Below are positions 3,578-57,740 of a DNA stretch of 64,000 nt, piece by piece. The translations under genes and the position numbers were made by a program. The notes beneath the pieces are model-generated. The model searched no databases, was not told the origin of the DNA, and was given only the letters and a program-made list of their open reading frames with translations. Location of the stretch: contig NZ_OZ257126.1 in the NCBI RefSeq assembly GCF_965278975.1, forward strand, positions 3,653,113 to 3,717,112, read 5' to 3'. The stretch's first letter is position 1. Each line of letters opens with the position of its first letter. Source of the DNA: Ferrovibrio sp. (GTDB lineage Bacteria > Pseudomonadota > Alphaproteobacteria > Ferrovibrionales > Ferrovibrionaceae).

Positions 3578-5953
3578 ATGGCAAGCTTCTCGCGCACATT
3601 AGAGCAATCCCTGCACCGGGCCCTGTCCCTGGCCGGCGCCAAGAAGCATGAATTCGCTACCCTTGAGCATCTGCTCTTCGCTCTTACCGAAGATTCCGAC
3701 GCCATCGCGGTGATGCGGGCGTGCAATGTCGATATCGAAAAGCTGCGCGAGCGGCTCGGCACCTTCATCGATGAAGAACTGCGCGGCCTGGTGGTTACCG
3801 GCTTACCGCAGGATGCCAAGCCGACCTTGAGCTTCCAGCGCGCCGTGCAGCGCGCGCTGTTCCATGTGCAATCCTCCGGCCGCGAGGAAGTGACCGGCGC
3901 CAATGTATTGGTGGCGATCTTCTCCGAACGCGAGAGCCATGCCGTGCATTTCCTGCAGGAGCAGGACATGACGCGTCTCGATGCCGTCAGCTATATCAGC
4001 CATGGCGTTGCCAAGGCGCCGGGCGCGCGCAACGAGCGCCGGCCGGTGCGCGGTGCCTCCGATGCGCCGTCGGGCGAGGAGGGCGCGCGCGAGCAGCGTG
4101 CCGAGCGCGAGAAGCCGGGCGCCAAGGATAAAGACAAGGACAAAGAGGCGCTCACCGCCTATTGCGTCAATCTCAACGACAAGGCCAAGGCCGGCAAGAT
4201 CGATCCGCTGATCGGCCGCGAACCCGAGATCGAGCGCACGATCCAGATTCTGTGCCGCCGCACCAAGAACAACCCGCTCTATGTCGGCGATCCCGGCGTT
4301 GGCAAGACCGCCATCGCGGAAGGTCTGGCGCGCCGCATCATCCATGGCGAAGTGCCGGGCATCCTGAAGGAAGCCGTGATCTACGCGCTGGACATGGGCA
4401 GCCTGCTTGCCGGCACGCGCTATCGCGGCGATTTCGAGGAACGCCTGAAGCAGGTGATGCAGGAGTTGGAAGCCCAGCCGAACGCCATCCTGTTCATCGA
4501 CGAGATGCACACCGTGATCGGCGCCGGTGCCACTTCCGGCGGCGCCATGGATGCGTCCAACCTGCTGAAGCCGGCGCTGGCTTCCGGCGCGCTGCGCTGC
4601 ATCGGCTCGACGACGTACAAGGAGTTTCGTTCCTACATCGAGAAGGACCGCGCACTGCTGCGCCGCTTCCAGAAGATCGATGTGAACGAGCCGACCCTGA
4701 CCGACGCGGTGAAGATCCTGCGCGGCATCAAGACCTATTACGAAGAGCATCATCACGTCCGCTATACCGACGATGCCATCAAGGCCGCCGTCGAGCTTTC
4801 GGCCAAGTATATCAACGACCGCAAGCTGCCGGACAAGGCCATCGATGTGATCGACGAAGTCGGCGCGGCTGAATTGCTGAAGCCGGAATCGCGCCGCCGC
4901 AAGGTGATCGGTGTGAAGGAGGTCGAGGCCATCGTTGCCAAGATCGCCCGCATTCCCCCGAAGTCGGTGAGCCGCGAGGACAAGGAATCCCTGCGCAACC
5001 TCAATGCCGAACTGAAGCGCGTGGTCTATGGCCAGGATGCCGCCATCGATGCGCTGTCCAGCGCCATCAAGCTGGCGCGTGCCGGCCTGCGCGAACCGGA
5101 AAAGCCGATCGGTTCCTATCTCTTCTCCGGCCCCACCGGCGTCGGCAAGACCGAGGTGGCGCGTCAGCTCGCCCATATCATGGGCGTGGAGCTGATCCGC
5201 TTCGATATGTCGGAATACATGGAGCGCCACAGCGTCTCGCGCCTGATCGGCGCACCGCCGGGCTATGTCGGCTTCGATCAGGGCGGCCTGCTCACCGATG
5301 CCGTGGACCAGCATCCGCATTGCGTGCTGCTGCTCGATGAAATCGAGAAGGCCCATGGCGACCTGTTCAACATTCTGTTGCAGGTGATGGACCACGGCAA
5401 GCTGACCGACAATAACGGCAAGAGCGTTGATTTCCGCAACGTGGTGCTGATCATGACCACGAATGCCGGTGCCTCCGAGATGTCGAAGCAGGCCATCGGC
5501 TTCGGCCGCGGTTTGAAGGAAGGCGAGGACGAAGAGGCGATCAAGAAGCTGTTCACGCCGGAATTCCGCAACCGCCTGGATGCCACCATCGGCTTCGCGC
5601 CGCTGGCGCAGGAAACCATCTCCCGCGTGGTCGACAAGTTCGTCGCCCAGCTCGAAGGCCAGCTTGCCGACCGCAATGTCACCATCGCGCTGACCGACGA
5701 GGCCCGCGCCTGGCTGGCCGAGCATGGCTACGACCCGCTCTATGGTGCCCGGCCGCTGGGCCGCGTGATCCAGGAAAACATCAAAAAGCCATTGGCGGAC
5801 GAATTGCTGTTCGGCCAGCTGGTCAAGGGTGGCCATATCCTGGTGACGGCGAAGGATGGCAAGCTCGGGTTTGAAATCACCGCCGAGAAGACGCCCGCGC
5901 CCAAGGGCAAGGGCGACGCCACGGAAAGCAAGGAGCCGGAATACGCGAATTGA
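3578..5953 (+). CDS. clpA: ATP-dependent Clp protease ATP-binding subunit ClpA
   Basis: Clp N-domain, two AAA+ modules (GDPGVGKT, GPTGVGKT), IGF loop; GGAGG RBS before ATG 3578. Confidence 0.97.
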   Translation: MASFSRTLEQSLHRALSLAGAKKHEFATLEHLLFALTEDSDAIAVMRACNVDIEKLRERLGTFIDEELRGLVVTGLPQDAKPTLSFQRAVQRALFHVQSSGREEVTGANVLVAIFSERESHAVHFLQEQDMTRLDAVSYISHGVAKAPGARNERRPVRGASDAPSGEEGAREQRAEREKPGAKDKDKDKEALTAYCVNLNDKAKAGKIDPLIGREPEIERTIQILCRRTKNNPLYVGDPGVGKTAIAEGLARRIIHGEVPGILKEAVIYALDMGSLLAGTRYRGDFEERLKQVMQELEAQPNAILFIDEMHTVIGAGATSGGAMDASNLLKPALASGALRCIGSTTYKEFRSYIEKDRALLRRFQKIDVNEPTLTDAVKILRGIKTYYEEHHHVRYTDDAIKAAVELSAKYINDRKLPDKAIDVIDEVGAAELLKPESRRRKVIGVKEVEAIVAKIARIPPKSVSREDKESLRNLNAELKRVVYGQDAAIDALSSAIKLARAGLREPEKPIGSYLFSGPTGVGKTEVARQLAHIMGVELIRFDMSEYMERHSVSRLIGAPPGYVGFDQGGLLTDAVDQHPHCVLLLDEIEKAHGDLFNILLQVMDHGKLTDNNGKSVDFRNVVLIMTTNAGASEMSKQAIGFGRGLKEGEDEEAIKKLFTPEFRNRLDATIGFAPLAQETISRVVDKFVAQLEGQLADRNVTIALTDEARAWLAEHGYDPLYGARPLGRVIQENIKKPLADELLFGQLVKGGHILVTAKDGKLGFEITAEKTPAPKGKGDATESKEPEYAN

Positions 5954-6071
5954 TATCGCGTATTCCGCTTGCCGGCGGCCTTCCTGGCATAATTTCTGCA
6001 CGCTTCTGAGGCTGTAACCCCACGCCGTCAAACTGCCGGCGTGGCACCCATCATGCTGTTTGAGTTAGGTC

Positions 6072-7136
6072 ATGGCCGATCAGAATCATCATTTGCAAGT
6101 CCATCAGGTAATCGATGGCATCGAGCGCGACGTTCAGGAATTCGGCGCGCAGAACGAAAACATCGCCTTCCAGACCACATTGCTAGCCTTGAATGCCTCG
6201 ATCGAAGCGGCGCGTGCCGGCGAGGTAGGCCGCAGTTTTGCGGTGGTGGCCCAGGAAGTGAAGGCATTGGCGAACCAGACCGCCGACAATTCCAAACGCT
6301 TCCGCGATGTCGTGCTGAAGCGGATCGGCGCCTCCAAGCAGGCCGCCGAGCAGATCGTCACCCAGATCGTGAAGGATCTGGAAGGCCCGCGCCTTGCCGA
6401 CATGGCCCAGACCATCGTGCAGCTGATCGTGCGGAACCTCTATGAGCGGACCTGCGATTGCCGCTGGTGGGCCACCGACGCGGCGATGTGGCAGGCCCTG
6501 GCCGAACCTTCCGAGGAATTATACGCGCTCGCCAGCGAACGCCTCGGCGTGATCAACCGTTTTTACACGGTGTATCTCAATCTGGTGCTGGCCGATGCCT
6601 CTGGCCGGGTGGTCGCCACGGCCAACCCGAAATTGTTTCCCCGCGCCGCGCGGGCTGATGTGTCGCGCACGCCCTGGTTCCAGAACGCCATGCGGTCGCG
6701 CAGCGGCGACGATTATTGCGTCGACGAGATCAGCCAGAGCAACAGCCATGAGCGCAAGGCGGTGGCGATCTATGCCGCGGCGGTCCGGGCTGGCGGCCAG
6801 ATCCATGGCGCGCCGCTTGGCGTGCTGGGTGTGATCTTCGATTGGGACAAGCAGGGCCGCAGCATCGTGCATGATGAACCCAGCCTGAGTGCCGAGGAAT
6901 GGCAGCGCAGCCGGGTGCTGCTGCTCGATGCCAGGCGCCGGGTCATTGCCGCTTCCGATGGTCAGGGCCTGTATCAGCCTTTCGATTTGCAGGCGGCGGA
7001 ACAGGAGCGGGGGTATTACTACGCCGCCGATGGCAGTCTGGTGGCCTTTGCCCGCACCATTGGCTACGAAACCTATGACGGCCTGGGCTGGTATGGTGTC
7101 GTCGTGCAGCAGCCCGGTTCGGGCCCCGGGCGCTGA
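6072..7136 (+). CDS. Soluble MCP-signal-domain protein with C-terminal Cache/PDC-like domain
   Basis: N-terminal chemoreceptor hairpin-tip motif ([31 protein letters not shown]), then a region resembling a PDC/Cache sensor; no TM helices seen. Confidence 0.75.
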
Positions 7137-7305
7137 CCTAGGGTAAACGTAAAGGGCAATGAAATTGCCTGATTATCCAAATGAATTTCCTGTGTGGTGC
7201 CCCCGGCACCACATGGACTTATATGTCGATTTTACATAAATTCTCCATCAATCGCCGGCCAGACGAAATCAGCCAGAGCCGGCATTGCATGGAGGCAAGA
7301 CACCA

Positions 7306-8898
7306 ATGGCAACCTTCCGTCTCAAGGCGGCTCTGCTGGCCAGCGCGCTCGCGCTGGCGGCGATCTCTCCCGCAGCTTATGCGCAGGGCAAGACCCTGCG
7401 CTGGGCCAGCCAGGGCGACTATCTCACCTTCGACCCGCATAGCCAGAACGAGGGCCTGACCCGCACCGGCTCATTCCAGGTCTATGAGGGCCTGCTCGGC
7501 TATTCCGCCGATCTGAAATTCGTGCCGGCGCTCGCCACCTCGTGGAAGGCGATCAACGACACCACCTGGGAATTCAAGCTGCGCCAGGGCGTCAAGTTCC
7601 ATGGCGGCGAGAGCTTCACCGCCGATGACGTGGTGTTCTCGGTCAAGCGCGCCCAGCATGCCAATTCGGATTTCAAGACCTACATCGCCTCCGTCAAGGA
7701 CGTGAAGAAGGTCGATGATTTCACCGTGCATGTGATCACCGACGGCGCCAACCCGATCCTGCCGAACCAGATCGCCAACATCTTCATCCTCTCCAAGGGC
7801 TGGGCCGAGAAGCACAATGTGCTGAACCCGCAGAGCTACAAGGACAAGGAAGAGACCTATGCCGTGCGCAATGCCAACGGCACCGGCCCGTTCTCGCTGA
7901 AGCTGCGCGAGCAGGATGTCCGCACCGTCACCGCCAAGAACCCGACCTGGTGGGGCCTCAAGGACGCGCCGCATAACATCGACGAGATCGTCTACACCCC
8001 GGTGACCACCGCCGCCACCCGCGTCGCCGCGCTGCTCTCGGGCCAGCTCGATTTCGTGCTCGACGTGCCGGTGCAGGACGTGGAACGCGTCCGCCGCACT
8101 GCCGGTATGCAGGTGAAGAAGACCAACGAAATCCGTTCGATCTTCCTCGGCCTCGATGTCGGCAGCCCGGAATTGAAGTATGCCGATGTGAAGGGCAAGA
8201 ACCCGCTGGCCGACAAGCGCGTGCGCCAGGCCATGTATCATGCCATCGACATGGAAGCGATCCGCGCCAAGGTGATGCGTGGCGATGCCGTGGTTGCCGG
8301 CATGATCACCTCGCCGGGCGTGCACGGGTATGATGCCGCGATCGACAAGCGCCTGCCGTATGATGTCGCCAAGGCCAAGAAGCTGCTGGCCGATGCCGGC
8401 TACCCGAATGGCTTCGGTATCACCCTGGATTGCTCGAACGACCGCTATGTGAATGACGAAGCGGTCTGCCAGGCTGTCGTCGGCATGCTGGCCCAGGCCG
8501 GCATCAAGGTGGATCTCGCGGCGCGCTCCAAGACGCTGCATTTCCCCAAACTGCAGAAGAAGGACAGCAGCTTCTTCCTGCTCGGCTGGGGCGTGCCGAC
8601 CTTCGACTCCCACTATGTGTTCTCGTATCTGGTGCAGACCCCGGACGGCAAGAACGGCTCCTGGAACTTCACCAACTACTCGAACCCGAAGCTGGACGGC
8701 ATGATCAACGGCATGCTCTCGGAGCTTGATGCCGGCAAGCGCGACAAGCTGATCCGCGACGTGTGGGATATTGTCAACGACGAGGTGATCTACCTGCCGC
8801 TGCATCATCAGGTGCTGAACTGGGCCATGGCCGACAAGCTGGACATGCCCATCATCGCCGACAATGTGCCGCGCTTCCACTTCGCCAAGCTGAAGTAA
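7306..8898 (+). CDS. Peptide/opine/nickel ABC transporter substrate-binding protein (family 5)
   Basis: Signal peptide; family-5 SBP motifs (YEGL, PALATSW, FKLRQGVKFHGG, GTGPF); GGAGG RBS. Confidence 0.92.
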   Translation: MATFRLKAALLASALALAAISPAAYAQGKTLRWASQGDYLTFDPHSQNEGLTRTGSFQVYEGLLGYSADLKFVPALATSWKAINDTTWEFKLRQGVKFHGGESFTADDVVFSVKRAQHANSDFKTYIASVKDVKKVDDFTVHVITDGANPILPNQIANIFILSKGWAEKHNVLNPQSYKDKEETYAVRNANGTGPFSLKLREQDVRTVTAKNPTWWGLKDAPHNIDEIVYTPVTTAATRVAALLSGQLDFVLDVPVQDVERVRRTAGMQVKKTNEIRSIFLGLDVGSPELKYADVKGKNPLADKRVRQAMYHAIDMEAIRAKVMRGDAVVAGMITSPGVHGYDAAIDKRLPYDVAKAKKLLADAGYPNGFGITLDCSNDRYVNDEAVCQAVVGMLAQAGIKVDLAARSKTLHFPKLQKKDSSFFLLGWGVPTFDSHYVFSYLVQTPDGKNGSWNFTNYSNPKLDGMINGMLSELDAGKRDKLIRDVWDIVNDEVIYLPLHHQVLNWAMADKLDMPIIADNVPRFHFAKLK

Positions 8899-14428: not shown

Positions 14429-14896
14429 TCAGGCCAGTTCGAAGATGGCGTCGATCTCGACCGACACGCCGCGCGGCAGCGACACCGCGCCGACCGCATA
14501 GCGGGCATGTTTGCCAGCCTCGCCGAATACCTGCACGAACAGGTCGGAAGCACCGTTGACCACCTGCGGCTGCTGGATGAAATCCGGTGTCGAGTTGACG
14601 AAGGCACCGACCTTGAGCACGCGCTTGATGCCATCCAGCGAACCGCCGGCCGCCGCGCGCGCCTGGGCGATCAGGTTGAGGCCGCAGAGCCGCGCCGCTT
14701 CCACGCCCTGTTCCACGCTCATATCGGCGCCAAGGCGGCCGAGATAGCGCAGTTCGCCATTCCAGATGGTGATCTGGCCGGCGACATAGAGCGTCTTGCC
14801 GCTGATGGTGTAGGGGACGTAGTTGGCTGCCGGGGTGGAGGGATTGGGCAGTTCAATGCCCAGCGCCTTGAGGCGCGCTTCATGGCTCTCGGTCAT
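14429..14896 (-). CDS. Rid (YjgF/YER057c/UK114) family protein, paralogue 1
   Basis: PAANYVPY, NGASDLFVQVFGEAGKHARYAVG and LP-GVSVEID motifs. Confidence 0.92.
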   Translation of the reverse strand: MTESHEARLKALGIELPNPSTPAANYVPYTISGKTLYVAGQITIWNGELRYLGRLGADMSVEQGVEAARLCGLNLIAQARAAAGGSLDGIKRVLKVGAFVNSTPDFIQQPQVVNGASDLFVQVFGEAGKHARYAVGAVSLPRGVSVEIDAIFELA

Positions 14897-14932
14897 GGGA
14901 GGATACCTTTGTGCTTACTGGAGCCGGTATTT

Positions 14933-15194
14933 GGGGCCGGACTCATTGGGAATAGGCCTGTGATTGGTCTGGGAGGGTCGCCGGTTAGGAGCAAATCGTA
15001 GCGCGTAGTGGGACTACGGGCAAGATTTGCGACGACACCCGGCGGCCCTCCCAGACCAACCCTTCGGGCGATGTGCTTTTCTTGCCTGGCGTTGTCGAAA
15101 ACCCTCACCGATGCACCACATCGCTTTCGGGTTCTCTCCTAGCCAGGCAAGAAAATCACAACGTCACGGGCCTATTCCCAATGAGTCCGGCCCC
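14933..15194 (+). ncRNA. Candidate structured non-coding RNA/element (unassigned)
   Basis: 31-bp stem 14933-14963/15164-15194 (one U.G) encloses a 21-bp stem 14964-14984/15039-15059 (one U.G), a C(UUCG)G mini-hairpin 15061-15068 and a 14-bp stem 15077-15090/15142-15155. Structure is directly seen; strand and RNA status are inferred. Confidence 0.55.
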
Positions 15195-15244
15195 TGGCCC
15201 CAAGCCGCCTTTAATCGCAACCGATGGCGGGTTTACTCACAGGG

Positions 15245-15988
15245 TCAGCTGATGGGGCGCGTGCGCCGCGTTTCCTTGTGCATGTACATGGCGCGGTCGG
15301 AGGCTTTCAGCAGGTTGGCTAGGCTGGCGCGGCCATCATAGCGCACCAGGCCGTAGGAGAGGCCGACGGCGAGGCGGCCCTGGCCCCAGAGCAGCGGCTC
15401 GTTGCGGATCGCGGCGCAGAGCGCGCGCAGCCGTGCCTCGGCTTCCGGCACGCTGTTATCGGGCAGCACCAGGGCGAATTCATCGCCATGCAGGCGGGCG
15501 GCGAAATCCTCACTGCCGGTGGCCTGGCGCAGATGGCGCGCGGCATGGCGCAGGGCGGCATCGCCGGCGGCATGGCCATGCCCGTCGTTGATGCCCTTCA
15601 GGCCGTCCAGGTCGAGGAAGCCGAGCACGCCGCCGCCATTCTGGCGGCGGGCGCGGACCAGTTCTTGGTCCATGTGGCGCTCGAATCCCCGGCGGTTGGC
15701 CAGGCCGGTGAGTTCATCGGTAAGGCTGACGCGCTCGAGATCCTCGATACGCTGCTGCTGGTCGGCAAGCTTCTGCTCGCTTTCCGCCGCAACATCGAGG
15801 ATCTGGTCGAGCAGCGCCAATCGGGCGGGGTCGCTGTCACGGCGCAGTTGCAGCCGCAGGCGCAGCACCAGGCTGGCGAAGCCGGGGCGCGCTGACTCAG
15901 GCAGCGCGGCACCGAAGGCCGGGGCTTGGTCGGCACGCCAGTCGGCGAGATTGACCGGCAGATCATTGGCTGGCAGGGCGAAGCTCAT
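15245..15988 (-). CDS. GGDEF-domain protein (HGDEF variant) with N-terminal coiled coil
   Basis: TDELTGLANRR, DLDGLKGINDGHGHAAGD and ARLHGDEF motifs; no RxxD I-site. Confidence 0.9.
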   Translation of the reverse strand: MSFALPANDLPVNLADWRADQAPAFGAALPESARPGFASLVLRLRLQLRRDSDPARLALLDQILDVAAESEQKLADQQQRIEDLERVSLTDELTGLANRRGFERHMDQELVRARRQNGGGVLGFLDLDGLKGINDGHGHAAGDAALRHAARHLRQATGSEDFAARLHGDEFALVLPDNSVPEAEARLRALCAAIRNEPLLWGQGRLAVGLSYGLVRYDGRASLANLLKASDRAMYMHKETRRTRPIS

Positions 15989-16040: not shown

Positions 16041-16082
16041 GAGTATTTTTATTGGAATTCCGGTAAAAATACTCCAGAATCC

Positions 16083-26605: not shown

Positions 26606-27298
26606 TCAATCCTCCCAGGAAACCACCGGACGGCCTGAGCGATAGCGCCAGAAGGCGGTGCGGGCGGGCTGGGACAGGCTTTCCAGGTCTTTAAGCTGCC
26701 CCAGCACGAATTCGGTGATATCGGCCAGCGGCAGCGCCAGGGCCTCATCCAGCGGCCGGAAACCAAGATCGAGCAGTTCGCCGGAACCGCCCAGCTCGCC
26801 CGAGGCGGCCTCGGCATCAGCGACGAAGAAGCGGGCGTGGAAACGGATCGGGCTCTGCGCCGGGGTGATGGCACGGCAGAGATAGGCCAAGCCGGAGAGG
26901 TCCGGCCGCAGGCTGCCGGAGACCAGCGGCCCCAGCGCCAGGCCGGTTTCCTCCCAGGTTTCCCGTGCAGCGGCGATGCCCAGGGCCTGTGCCGCCTGAA
27001 GTGAGCAGCCGTGATTAAGTAGCCGAGTTTCCGTATTCTTATCCAATGGCTTGTGATGGGTATCTGACTTGTCGCTTAAATCAACCCGGCCACCCGGAAA
27101 GGCGTAGACATTGGGCAGGAAGCGGTGCTTGCCGGCGCGGCGGCCGAGCAACACTTCCCAGGTGCCGGAAGCACGGCGGCGCAGCAGCACCAGGCTGGCG
27201 GCATCGCGCGGACGTGCCGGGCGGGCGCCTTCGGGCAGTGGGGGAAAGCCCAATTCCGGTCGGGCAAAGGGCGGCAGCGGGTTTTCTGGATTGTTCAT
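26606..27298 (-). CDS. NUDIX hydrolase, paralogue 2
   Basis: PRDAASLVL, FPGGRVD, AAARETWEETG and RFHARFF motifs. Confidence 0.88.
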   Translation of the reverse strand: MNNPENPLPPFARPELGFPPLPEGARPARPRDAASLVLLRRRASGTWEVLLGRRAGKHRFLPNVYAFPGGRVDLSDKSDTHHKPLDKNTETRLLNHGCSLQAAQALGIAAARETWEETGLALGPLVSGSLRPDLSGLAYLCRAITPAQSPIRFHARFFVADAEAASGELGGSGELLDLGFRPLDEALALPLADITEFVLGQLKDLESLSQPARTAFWRYRSGRPVVSWED

Positions 27299-27339
27299 TC
27301 CAGAATCCCGGTCATTCCAGAACCTTGGTCATTCCAGAA
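27295..27339. repeat. Three 17-bp-period tandem repeats (core TCATTCCAGAA)
   Basis: Copies at 27295, 27312 and 27329, spanning the stop of one Nudix gene and the start of the next. Confidence 0.85.
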
Positions 27340-28039
27340 CCATCATGTCCTTGCCTGAATAACCCCGGCGGTAAAACGGCACGCCGAGATCGGGGTTATG
27401 CAGCGCCGGCTCGGCCAGCCAGTCGGGCAGGCGGTGCAGCACTTCCTGGGTGATCGGCGGCAGGTCCAGCCGGGCGGCATCGTCTGGCGTGATCCAGAGC
27501 AGGTTGCCGAGTTCCTCCGAGGGCCGCAGCTCGCCAGTTGCGGCGCTGGCCGGGGCGGCGAAGAAGCGGGCATCGAAGCGGCGCGGGCGCTGTGGCGGCG
27601 TCACCGCGCGGCAGACATAAGTCAAGGCCGAGGGGTCGGGTGCCAGCAGGCAATCATCCGCCGTGCAGAACTCGCCCCAGCCCTCCGGCGGCTCGCCCTT
27701 GAAAGCGCGGCTGGCCGGGCCGGCAAGGCGCAGGCCGGTTTCCTCGAAGGTCTCGCGGATGGCGGCCAGCGCCAGGGCCAGTGCCTTGCGCGGGCCGGTG
27801 ACGCGGGCGCGGGCGAAGCGGGCGGCGGTGGCGACATTCAGCGGGGCTGCGGGGCGAACGCGGTAATCGGCCAAGTCCAGCCTGCCGCCGGGGAACACAT
27901 AGGTCTTTGGCATGAAGGCGTTGGAAGCGGCGCGTTCGCCGAGCAGCACTTGCAGCCTGCCGGCGTCAAAGCGGTAGAGGATCAGGGTGGCGGCGTCGCG
28001 GATCGGCTGCGGGGGCTTTTTCGGTGCTTCAGTCATCAT
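27329..28039 (-). CDS. NUDIX hydrolase, paralogue 1
   Basis: IRDAATLIL, FPGGRLD, AAIRETFEETG and RRFDARFF motifs. Confidence 0.88.
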   Translation of the reverse strand: MMTEAPKKPPQPIRDAATLILYRFDAGRLQVLLGERAASNAFMPKTYVFPGGRLDLADYRVRPAAPLNVATAARFARARVTGPRKALALALAAIRETFEETGLRLAGPASRAFKGEPPEGWGEFCTADDCLLAPDPSALTYVCRAVTPPQRPRRFDARFFAAPASAATGELRPSEELGNLLWITPDDAARLDLPPITQEVLHRLPDWLAEPALHNPDLGVPFYRRGYSGKDMMVLE

Positions 28040-57527: not shown

Positions 57528-57740
57528 CGTCATTCCCGCGAAGGCGGGAATCCCGTTTCACGTTGGTAAAAATGGGACCCTCTGTAAGCGCGCGAACGCC
57601 TAACGGGGTTCGTGGGCGCACAGGCCCGAAGGGCTGGCGCGAGGGTGACAAGTATGTGTAAACGCCATGCCCTGCCTGCGCAGGGCATGGCGTTTACACA
57701 TGATGAGCCGTCATGGCCCGCTTTAGGCGGGCCATCCACG
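57528..57740. repeat. REP-flanked hairpin cluster
   Basis: CGTCATTCCCGCGAAGGCGGGAATCC (57528-57553), a branched hairpin 57577-57646, a perfect 22-bp palindrome 57654-57701 and a CGTCATGG REP 57709-57735. Confidence 0.75.

Follow-up and report, generated by a model that had tools for sequence, protein, structure and literature searches.

The 262-nt element at positions 14933–15194 of the window (the whole 64,000-nt stretch of Ferrovibrio sp. DNA that was analysed) is an insertion at CTAG between two genes, present in the window's strain only, and not a conserved RNA gene. We consider it probably a small non-coding mobile DNA, a MITE, with an unusually elaborate fold. Judged from its sequence, it would represent a new MITE family of a known kind, since it has no sequence relationship to the systems to which it is likened below and is absent from the large public collections scanned. 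The insertion, the dispersed copies with unrelated flanks, the inverted repeats, the TA flanks on most copies and the absence of coding capacity are all evidenced directly. The initial annotation had read the element as a novel structured ncRNA. That reading is not supported, given an orthologous site that is empty in relatives, dispersed TA-flanked copies and the lack of a consistent strand bias; its fallback, a non-autonomous element, is supported by the dispersed copies, the inverted repeats and the empty sites.

The element lies between the first RidA/YjgF gene (14429–14896, − strand, Pfam PF14588 and PF01042), whose start codon is 36 nt away, and a GGDEF diguanylate cyclase gene (15245–15988, − strand, Pfam PF00990), whose stop codon is 50 nt away. 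The gap from RidA start (14896) to GGDEF stop (15245) measures 348 nt, the same length as had been reported for it initially. The best named homologues of the window RidA are from Ferrovibrio sp., and the window's 44 main ORFs encode ordinary chromosomal functions, for example Clp ATPase, topoisomerase I, RNase R, RecJ, homoserine dehydrogenase, TonB-dependent receptors and PhaC. On the other side of the GGDEF gene, between its start and the 2-hydroxyacid dehydrogenase stop, lies an AT-rich 17-bp palindrome (GAGTATTTTTATTGGAA / TTCCGGTAAAAATACTC, 16041–16074).

The fold of the element is far beyond chance. The folding energy was −182.7 kcal/mol on the + strand (z −16.7) and −178.4 kcal/mol on the − strand (z −16.4), and none of 200 shuffles on either strand matched the native energy. 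In the minimum-free-energy fold, 79% of the bases are paired, and each helix of the initial annotation (the 31-bp closing stem, arms A and B and the mini hairpin) was reproduced. The closing stem (14933–14963/15164–15194, 31 bp with one T.G at 14959/15168) encloses arm A (14964–15059), a mini hairpin with a 3-bp stem (CCCTTCGGG, 15060–15068) and arm B (15069–15163). Arm A, probably a nested hairpin module, consists of a 21-bp stem (14964–14984/15039–15059, one T.G at 14978/15045), a 7-bp inner stem GCAAATC/GATTTGC (14991–14997/15024–15030) and an apical hairpin CGTAGT-GGG-ACTACG with a 6-bp stem (15004–15018). Arm B stacks directly on the closing stem; its stem of ~20 bp with two mismatches is made of 14 bp (15077–15090/15142–15155) extended by 4 + 2 pairs over the two mismatches, and is followed by the 5-bp stem AACCC/GGGTT (15100–15104/15129–15133) and the apical hairpin CGATG-CACCA-CATCG with a 5-bp stem (15109–15123).

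The orthologous site was found both empty and filled, as expected of a MITE. Six contigs of relatives (L005–L010) have the same gene order as the window (2-hydroxyacid dehydrogenase, GGDEF, RidA, RidA, GDPD, FemAB-like), with RidA 94% or 86% identical to that of the window. The GGDEF–RidA gap in these contigs is only 92–96 nt and the element is missing; when aligned with the window, the whole element formed one clean missing block in each of the five loci aligned out of the six. A contig of organism C (flank divergence ~5%) joins 14930 directly to 15213, without the element. In a contig of organism F, 14930 is joined to 15197 with only CTA between them, giving TAT-CTAG-CCCCAAGC. The empty sites read TAT-CTAG-CCCC, with an intact CTAG at the element's position. 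Organisms A and B, with flanks identical to those of the window, carry the element at the same locus, which is also filled, again with identical flanks, in wastewater metagenome X2. The insertion between GGDEF and RidA is recent and strain-specific, and could be used as a strain marker. As a separate observation, L005, the closest relative (RidA 94% identical), carries Wzy_C (O-antigen ligase-like) and autotransporter genes between the dehydrogenase and GGDEF genes (its positions 5594–8871) that are missing from the window and from L007–L010.

Diverged copies of the element are dispersed at unrelated sites within the same genome, in the related organism C and across at least eight wastewater or bioreactor metagenomes. 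Organism B is the same strain or species as the window. In its run X27 (single-copy depth ~200) contigs end inside the element at 15029 and resume at 15145; short-read assemblies of the organism break there because the element is a mobile repeat. Three organism B contigs match part of the element and then continue into unrelated sequence: one of 844 nt matches 14933–15010 with 11 differences, one of 2374 nt matches 15135–15195 with 4 differences, and one of 1086 nt matches 15140–15199 with 8 differences. An assembly branch in organism B also carries a diverged element end (AATGGGTCCAGACCC). At least 2–3 further copies are thus present in the same genome as the window, as counted from organism B contigs. 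The summed contig depth in organism B amounted to ~10 single-copy equivalents at 15145–15154, and to two to three single-copy equivalents for the left end and arm A. Organism C, lacking the element between GGDEF and RidA, has a copy at a different locus (matching 14981–15195, 9 differences). Seven metagenomes (X12, X13, X14, X15, X16, X18 and X20), from wastewater and in one case from a bioreactor, have one to several copies each, with different flanks again. The 30-nt flanks of the other copies had no match in the window or the fetched loci, and sensitive local blastn found no other copy within the window or these loci, so that the element is single-copy in the window. Dispersed copies of the MITE kind, which the initial annotation had itself named as the finding that would speak against an RNA, are present, the TA duplications being seen as a consensus only. 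In the X12 and X20 subfamily, 83 nt rather than the window's 30 nt separate positions 15034 and 15065, and the internal content of the element family is therefore variable.

The ends of the element are defined by 31-bp terminal inverted repeats, the left one (GGGGCCGGACTCATTGGGAATAGGCCTGTGA, 14933–14963) being complementary at 30 of 31 positions to the right one (15164–15194), which together with the adjoining arm B stem is the most repeated segment. The terminal sequence at the element ends is GGGGCCGGACTCATTGGGAATAGGCC. Matches of the other copies start exactly at 14933 and end at 15195 (the T after the repeat), beyond which the flanks are unrelated. Left flanks of other copies read ...TCTCTA|, ...GCATGCCTA|, ...CATGGTTA| and ...GTAGTCTA|, the bases just before GGGGCC being CTA, CTA, TTA and CTA; right flanks read |TAGCTGC, |TAGACCT, |TAGAAAA, |TAGCTAT, |TAGGGTA and |TACACTC, with |TAGGCCA on a diverged end, so that |TAG occurs on the right at five or more distinct sites. 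Nearly all other copies are TA-flanked on both sides, with the consensus YTA|GGGGCC...GGCCCC|TAG; for most copies the left and right ends come from different contigs, and the TA flanks are therefore a consensus, not paired per copy. Three copies have |TGGCC on the right (that of the window, one in organisms B and A, and one in metagenome X15), which is more frequent than chance allows. In the window's copy the dinucleotides at the positions of the TA duplication are degenerate on the left (TT, 14931–14932) and read TG on the right (15195–15196), and G 15197 completes the former CTAG. Compared with the expected TAT-CTA[element]TA-GCCCC, the window's TAT-TT[element]TG-GCCCC contains one deletion on the left and two substitutions, more changes than expected for so recent an insertion. 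The direct repeats of MITEs are known to degenerate over time (PMC10969869), and TA duplication can be imprecise even in vitro (PMC2170065).

Read from the sequence, the consensus would correspond to an element that entered the TA within (C/T)TAG and is bordered by TA left and right, as is characteristic of IS630/Tc1-mariner elements. TA is the target that IS630 and ISY100 duplicate on insertion (PMC2170065); the same source, with reference to Tenzen and Ohtsubo 1991, gives a preference of IS630 for CTAG. The identical junction sequence would also result from an IS5-like duplication of 4 bp (CTAG) with ends GGGCC...GGCCC or from insertion after CTA without duplication, and it is equally compatible with both. 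Tn3-type ends (GGGG start, 38 bp, 5-bp duplication) were dismissed because a 5-bp duplication is absent and the empty site has no such footprint; the structure of the ends led us to reject both an integron attC site and an IS200/IS605-type element. In the mechanism that we favour, a transposase acting in trans, most probably a DDE enzyme of the IS630/Tc1-mariner type, would bind the 31-bp terminal inverted repeats at the two ends. Such an enzyme would excise the element and reinsert it at a TA, preferably within CTAG, duplicating the TA; in the window's lineage, the element would have landed in the CTAG of the short GGDEF–RidA operon spacer. CTAG is ninefold under-represented in the window (23 observed versus 212 expected), and the scarcity of this target would keep the element rare, in agreement with its low copy number. 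One of the 23 lies within the element, in the internal loop of arm B (15139–15142), and is a potential target for further nested insertion. Over the whole window, GTAC was also scarce (57 versus 212 expected), and GATC, CATG and TCGA were approximately twofold over-represented.

The element is small (262 bp, well under ~500 bp) and non-coding, with 2–4 stop codons in each of the six frames. As the initial annotation had anticipated, there was no Rfam hit near threshold: with the covariance models of Rfam 15, the best score was 16 bits against thresholds of 34–100, with E-values of 2–6 (noise at permissive thresholds), and in the rest of the window only a tRNA elsewhere passed threshold. No transposase, reverse transcriptase or recombinase was detected among the window's 44 main ORFs, which extends to the window the earlier remark that none is nearby. 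A full-length insertion sequence should yield contigs that match only the terminal repeat, and organism B had none. An exact scan with a terminal-repeat 18-mer over GTDB representative genomes, JGI metagenome contigs and IMG/VR gave only chance matches of 18–23 nt, as did 18-mers of the arm A apex and the arm B stem over IMG/VR, and blastn of the whole element against PLSDB plasmids gave no match. A cognate autonomous insertion sequence with matching ends was therefore found neither in the window nor in organism B nor in the collections scanned, and for this reason we infer the mobilising enzyme. Many accepted bacterial MITEs are likewise without a known partner (PMC2229807).

The arms appear to be modular. 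Four helices meet without any unpaired base: 14963 pairs with 15164 and 15069 with 15163, so that arm A and the mini hairpin together interrupt, between neighbouring pairs, a helix that would otherwise be continuous. In silico removal of 14964–15068 left one continuous 157-nt hairpin with zero linker bases at the junction (−117 kcal/mol on +, −123 kcal/mol on −). In organism B, X12 and X14, the segment made up of the right end and the arm B stem exceeded arm A severalfold in abundance, an excess that is expected if a form lacking arm A exists, because both of its ends would align there. The three-arm form may thus have arisen by nested insertion of arm A plus the mini hairpin (14964–15068) into a 157-nt single-hairpin MITE. 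The arm A apex (~14993–15028) also recurs inside long palindromes with unrelated 20–23 bp stems; such apex-only palindromes, aligned to window 14982–15034, were found in an 8023-nt contig of organism B, a contig of organism A and an X12 contig. The stem around the apex is GGGTGAATTTGGCCTTCGGG in organisms A and B and CGAGGTAAAAAAGGTGA-CTACA in X12. Since the apex recurs within unrelated stems, arm A appears to be part of a separate hairpin family.

Changes in the stems between copies are compensated. In the X12, X13, X14 and X20 subfamily the 5′ strand of arm A is TTGGCCCAGGAAGGCTGCCGG, and in contigs of X13 and X14 the 3′ strand is CCGGCAGCCTTCCTGGGCCAA, which complements it exactly. Compared with the window, the arm A stem of the subfamily has five double transitions (14968/15055, 14970/15053, 14971/15052, 14975/15048 and 14979/15044) and a repaired T.G at 14978, with no uncompensated change. 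The copy of organisms B and C has T-A to A-T at 14970/15053 and G-C to A-T at 14975/15048. In arm B, C-G becomes T-A at 15102/15131 within single contigs, and C to T at 15134 in other copies repairs the A x C mismatch. Covariation of this sort is commonly sought as a sign of RNA structure, but DNA palindromes should show it just as much, whether because a folded single strand is under selection or because template switching corrects quasi-palindromes. One or the other of these processes would have kept the perfect stems of the element symmetric. It is doubtful, though worth considering, that arm A represents a separate, undescribed class of small hairpin modules, a mobile or functional unit that is read by its structure (as ssDNA or RNA). 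Such modules could have a conserved ~40–50 nt apex, AGGAG...GCAAATC...CGTAGTGGGACTACG...GATTTGC, on stems of 20–23 bp that are perfectly paired yet wholly different from site to site and that evolve by compensatory change only, and they could occur alone in the chromosome as well as nested in a TA-targeting MITE.

A cut-and-paste DDE enzyme needs no internal arms, yet the stems have stayed perfectly paired through five double substitutions. This might be taken as a hint that the element instead moves as a single strand and depends on its hairpins, with a HUH/Y1-type enzyme or another structure-reading recombinase acting on the folded ssDNA on the model of REPIN/RAYT or IS200/IS605; insertion would follow CTA in CTA|G and create no duplication, and the arms would be the recognition structures. 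Maintenance of the internal stems by compensatory changes and the recurrence of the arm A apex in palindromes with unrelated stems would both fit, and the junction YTA|...TA|G fits insertion without duplication equally well. The apical hairpin moreover reads GTAG...CTAC, and GTAG is the conserved REP tetranucleotide. However, the ends pair end to end as a 31-bp inverted repeat and not as separate subterminal hairpins, both flanks are symmetrically constrained with TA on each side, the copy number is low compared with the tens to hundreds typical of REPINs, and the window contains no RAYT, TnpA or Y1 transposase gene. We therefore regard transposition of this kind as unlikely. The shape of the element, a closing stem round two arms, also resembles a retron msr/msd template, in which a closing a1/a2 stem surrounds short hairpins and one long hairpin, but in overall shape only. 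The neighbours are GGDEF and RidA genes, no RT domain occurs in the window's 44 ORFs, copies are dispersed and TA-flanked and the site is empty in relatives; the retron-like reading is effectively refuted.

The copies were further compared for strand preference. The initial annotation had argued from two U.G wobbles, the single imperfect pairs of the two longest stems, that selection acted on a + strand RNA. Both wobbles are indeed present in the window's copy on the + strand, but two such events have p = 0.25, and they are private to that copy: other copies are perfectly paired there, with C at 14978. The C(UUCG)G loop to which the same argument appealed is likewise present, but it is not conserved, other copies having an extra G after 15064 or 15065. 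Over all copies, wobbles on + occur at 14959/15168 and 14978/15045, plus T.G at 15009/15013 in several copies, and wobbles on − occur at 15099/15134 (A x C) in the window and at 15098/15135 in some copies. Folding favours + for arm A (−69.6 versus −59.3 kcal/mol on −) and − for arm B (−52.6 versus −42.6 kcal/mol on +). With mixed wobbles and opposite arm energies there is no consistent strand preference, and selection for a + strand RNA is therefore unsupported. No sigma-70-like promoter or intrinsic terminator was found in or beside the element, and neither strand has a T-run after the hairpin. RNA-seq of organism F, a strain without the element, gave a single contig covering RidA to GGDEF, and the two genes are therefore probably co-transcribed; a single metatranscriptome showed no coverage of the element. 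The most likely RNA form of the element would thus be the − strand, produced by passive read-through within the GGDEF–RidA transcript, and its 21–31 bp duplexes may be RNase III substrates by analogy with Correia elements.

These data bear on two further explanations that assign the element a function as RNA. A stand-alone or trans-acting structured + strand ncRNA gene, carried on or evolved from a mobile element, would account for the extreme folding energy, the stem covariation, the U.G on + at both imperfect pairs of the window copy's long stems and the T.G at 15009/15013, a + strand wobble. It is highly unlikely in view of the orthologous site lacking the element in all relatives examined, the lack of a promoter or terminator, the greater stability of arm B and of the 157-nt core on −, where the A x C at 15099/15134 is a wobble, and the unconserved UUCG loop; furthermore, near-perfect duplexes of 21–31 bp with no unpaired junction bases are typical of DNA palindromes and not of functional RNAs. 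Alternatively, the element could be a selected cis-regulatory element of the − strand GGDEF–RidA transcript, acting as a leader, a processing site or a terminator/insulator. Its position in the transcript, with the GGDEF stop 50 nt upstream and the RidA start 36 nt downstream, the co-transcription suggested by the relative's RNA-seq contig over the gap, and the fact that other MITEs act in this way (PMC10969869) are consistent with such a role, which we nevertheless find very improbable. Relatives manage without the element, other copies are in unrelated contexts and the hairpin is not followed by a T-run on either strand; any regulatory effect would therefore be a by-product of insertion.

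Among known systems, the MITE that we propose appears by analogy to be functionally closest to Correia/NEMIS and to IS630-derived MITEs (RUP), and closest to bcr1 in the evolution of its fold. Correia/NEMIS elements of Neisseria are likewise non-coding (100–200 bp), with ~25 bp inverted repeats and TA at both termini, with filled and empty sites between strains and with intergenic insertion near gene starts (PMC2229807, PMC10969869); their transcripts form long hairpins that are cut by RNase III (PMC10969869). Unlike the present element, they occur in >100 copies per genome as a single hairpin with promoters and an IHF site, whereas the present element has few copies, 262 bp, a branched fold and no promoter-like site, and no sequence similarity to them. 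RUP of Streptococcus pneumoniae and the IS630/Tc1-mariner MITEs share the TA target with its duplication, an IS630-family transposase in trans and the lack of coding capacity (PMC2229807, PMC2170065). RUP repeats, however, match the known IS630-Spn1; since no partner of the present element was found, its putative assignment to IS630 is based solely on the target site. The bcr1 element of the Bacillus cereus group is a MITE-like repeat of ~155 bp with a non-conserved genomic distribution, in which compensatory base changes keep a cruciform-like RNA fold (PMC3184786), but it differs in its 5-bp direct repeats, Firmicute host, unrelated sequence and demonstrated transcription. REPIN/REP-BIME elements with RAYT are also hairpin-forming intergenic mobile DNA whose halves evolve symmetrically (PMC3116915). 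They are shorter, very numerous, tied to a RAYT gene and without long inverted repeats or TA flanks; the copies of the present element in organism B are few, and the window has no Y1 transposase.

For annotation, these results mean that the stretch should be labelled a mobile repeat and not an RNA gene. The insertion 36 nt upstream of the RidA operon and right after the GGDEF gene may alter coupling or mRNA stability. The element adds a MITE family that would target TA in CTAG in wastewater Rhodospirillales (Ferrovibrio-like), and offers a clear-cut case of a branched MITE, which nested insertion probably produced and in which stem evolution is fully compensated. It also cautions that strong covariation and extreme folding energy alone do not indicate an RNA gene.

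Two other repeats of the window were noted. A perfect 22-bp palindrome with a 4-nt loop (ATGTGTAAACGCCATGCCCTGC / GCAGGGCATGGCGTTTACACAT, 57654–57701) is directly followed by a second, GC-rich hairpin (57705–57737), and the two together (57654–57737) might act as a bidirectional terminator or represent a further small palindromic element. A 131-nt direct repeat with 70% identity occurs at 26775–26905 and 27510–27640 (spacing 735 nt), the second copy inside a NUDIX-domain ORF (27329–28039). Because relatives carry two adjacent NUDIX genes, these repeats are probably tandem NUDIX paralogues.
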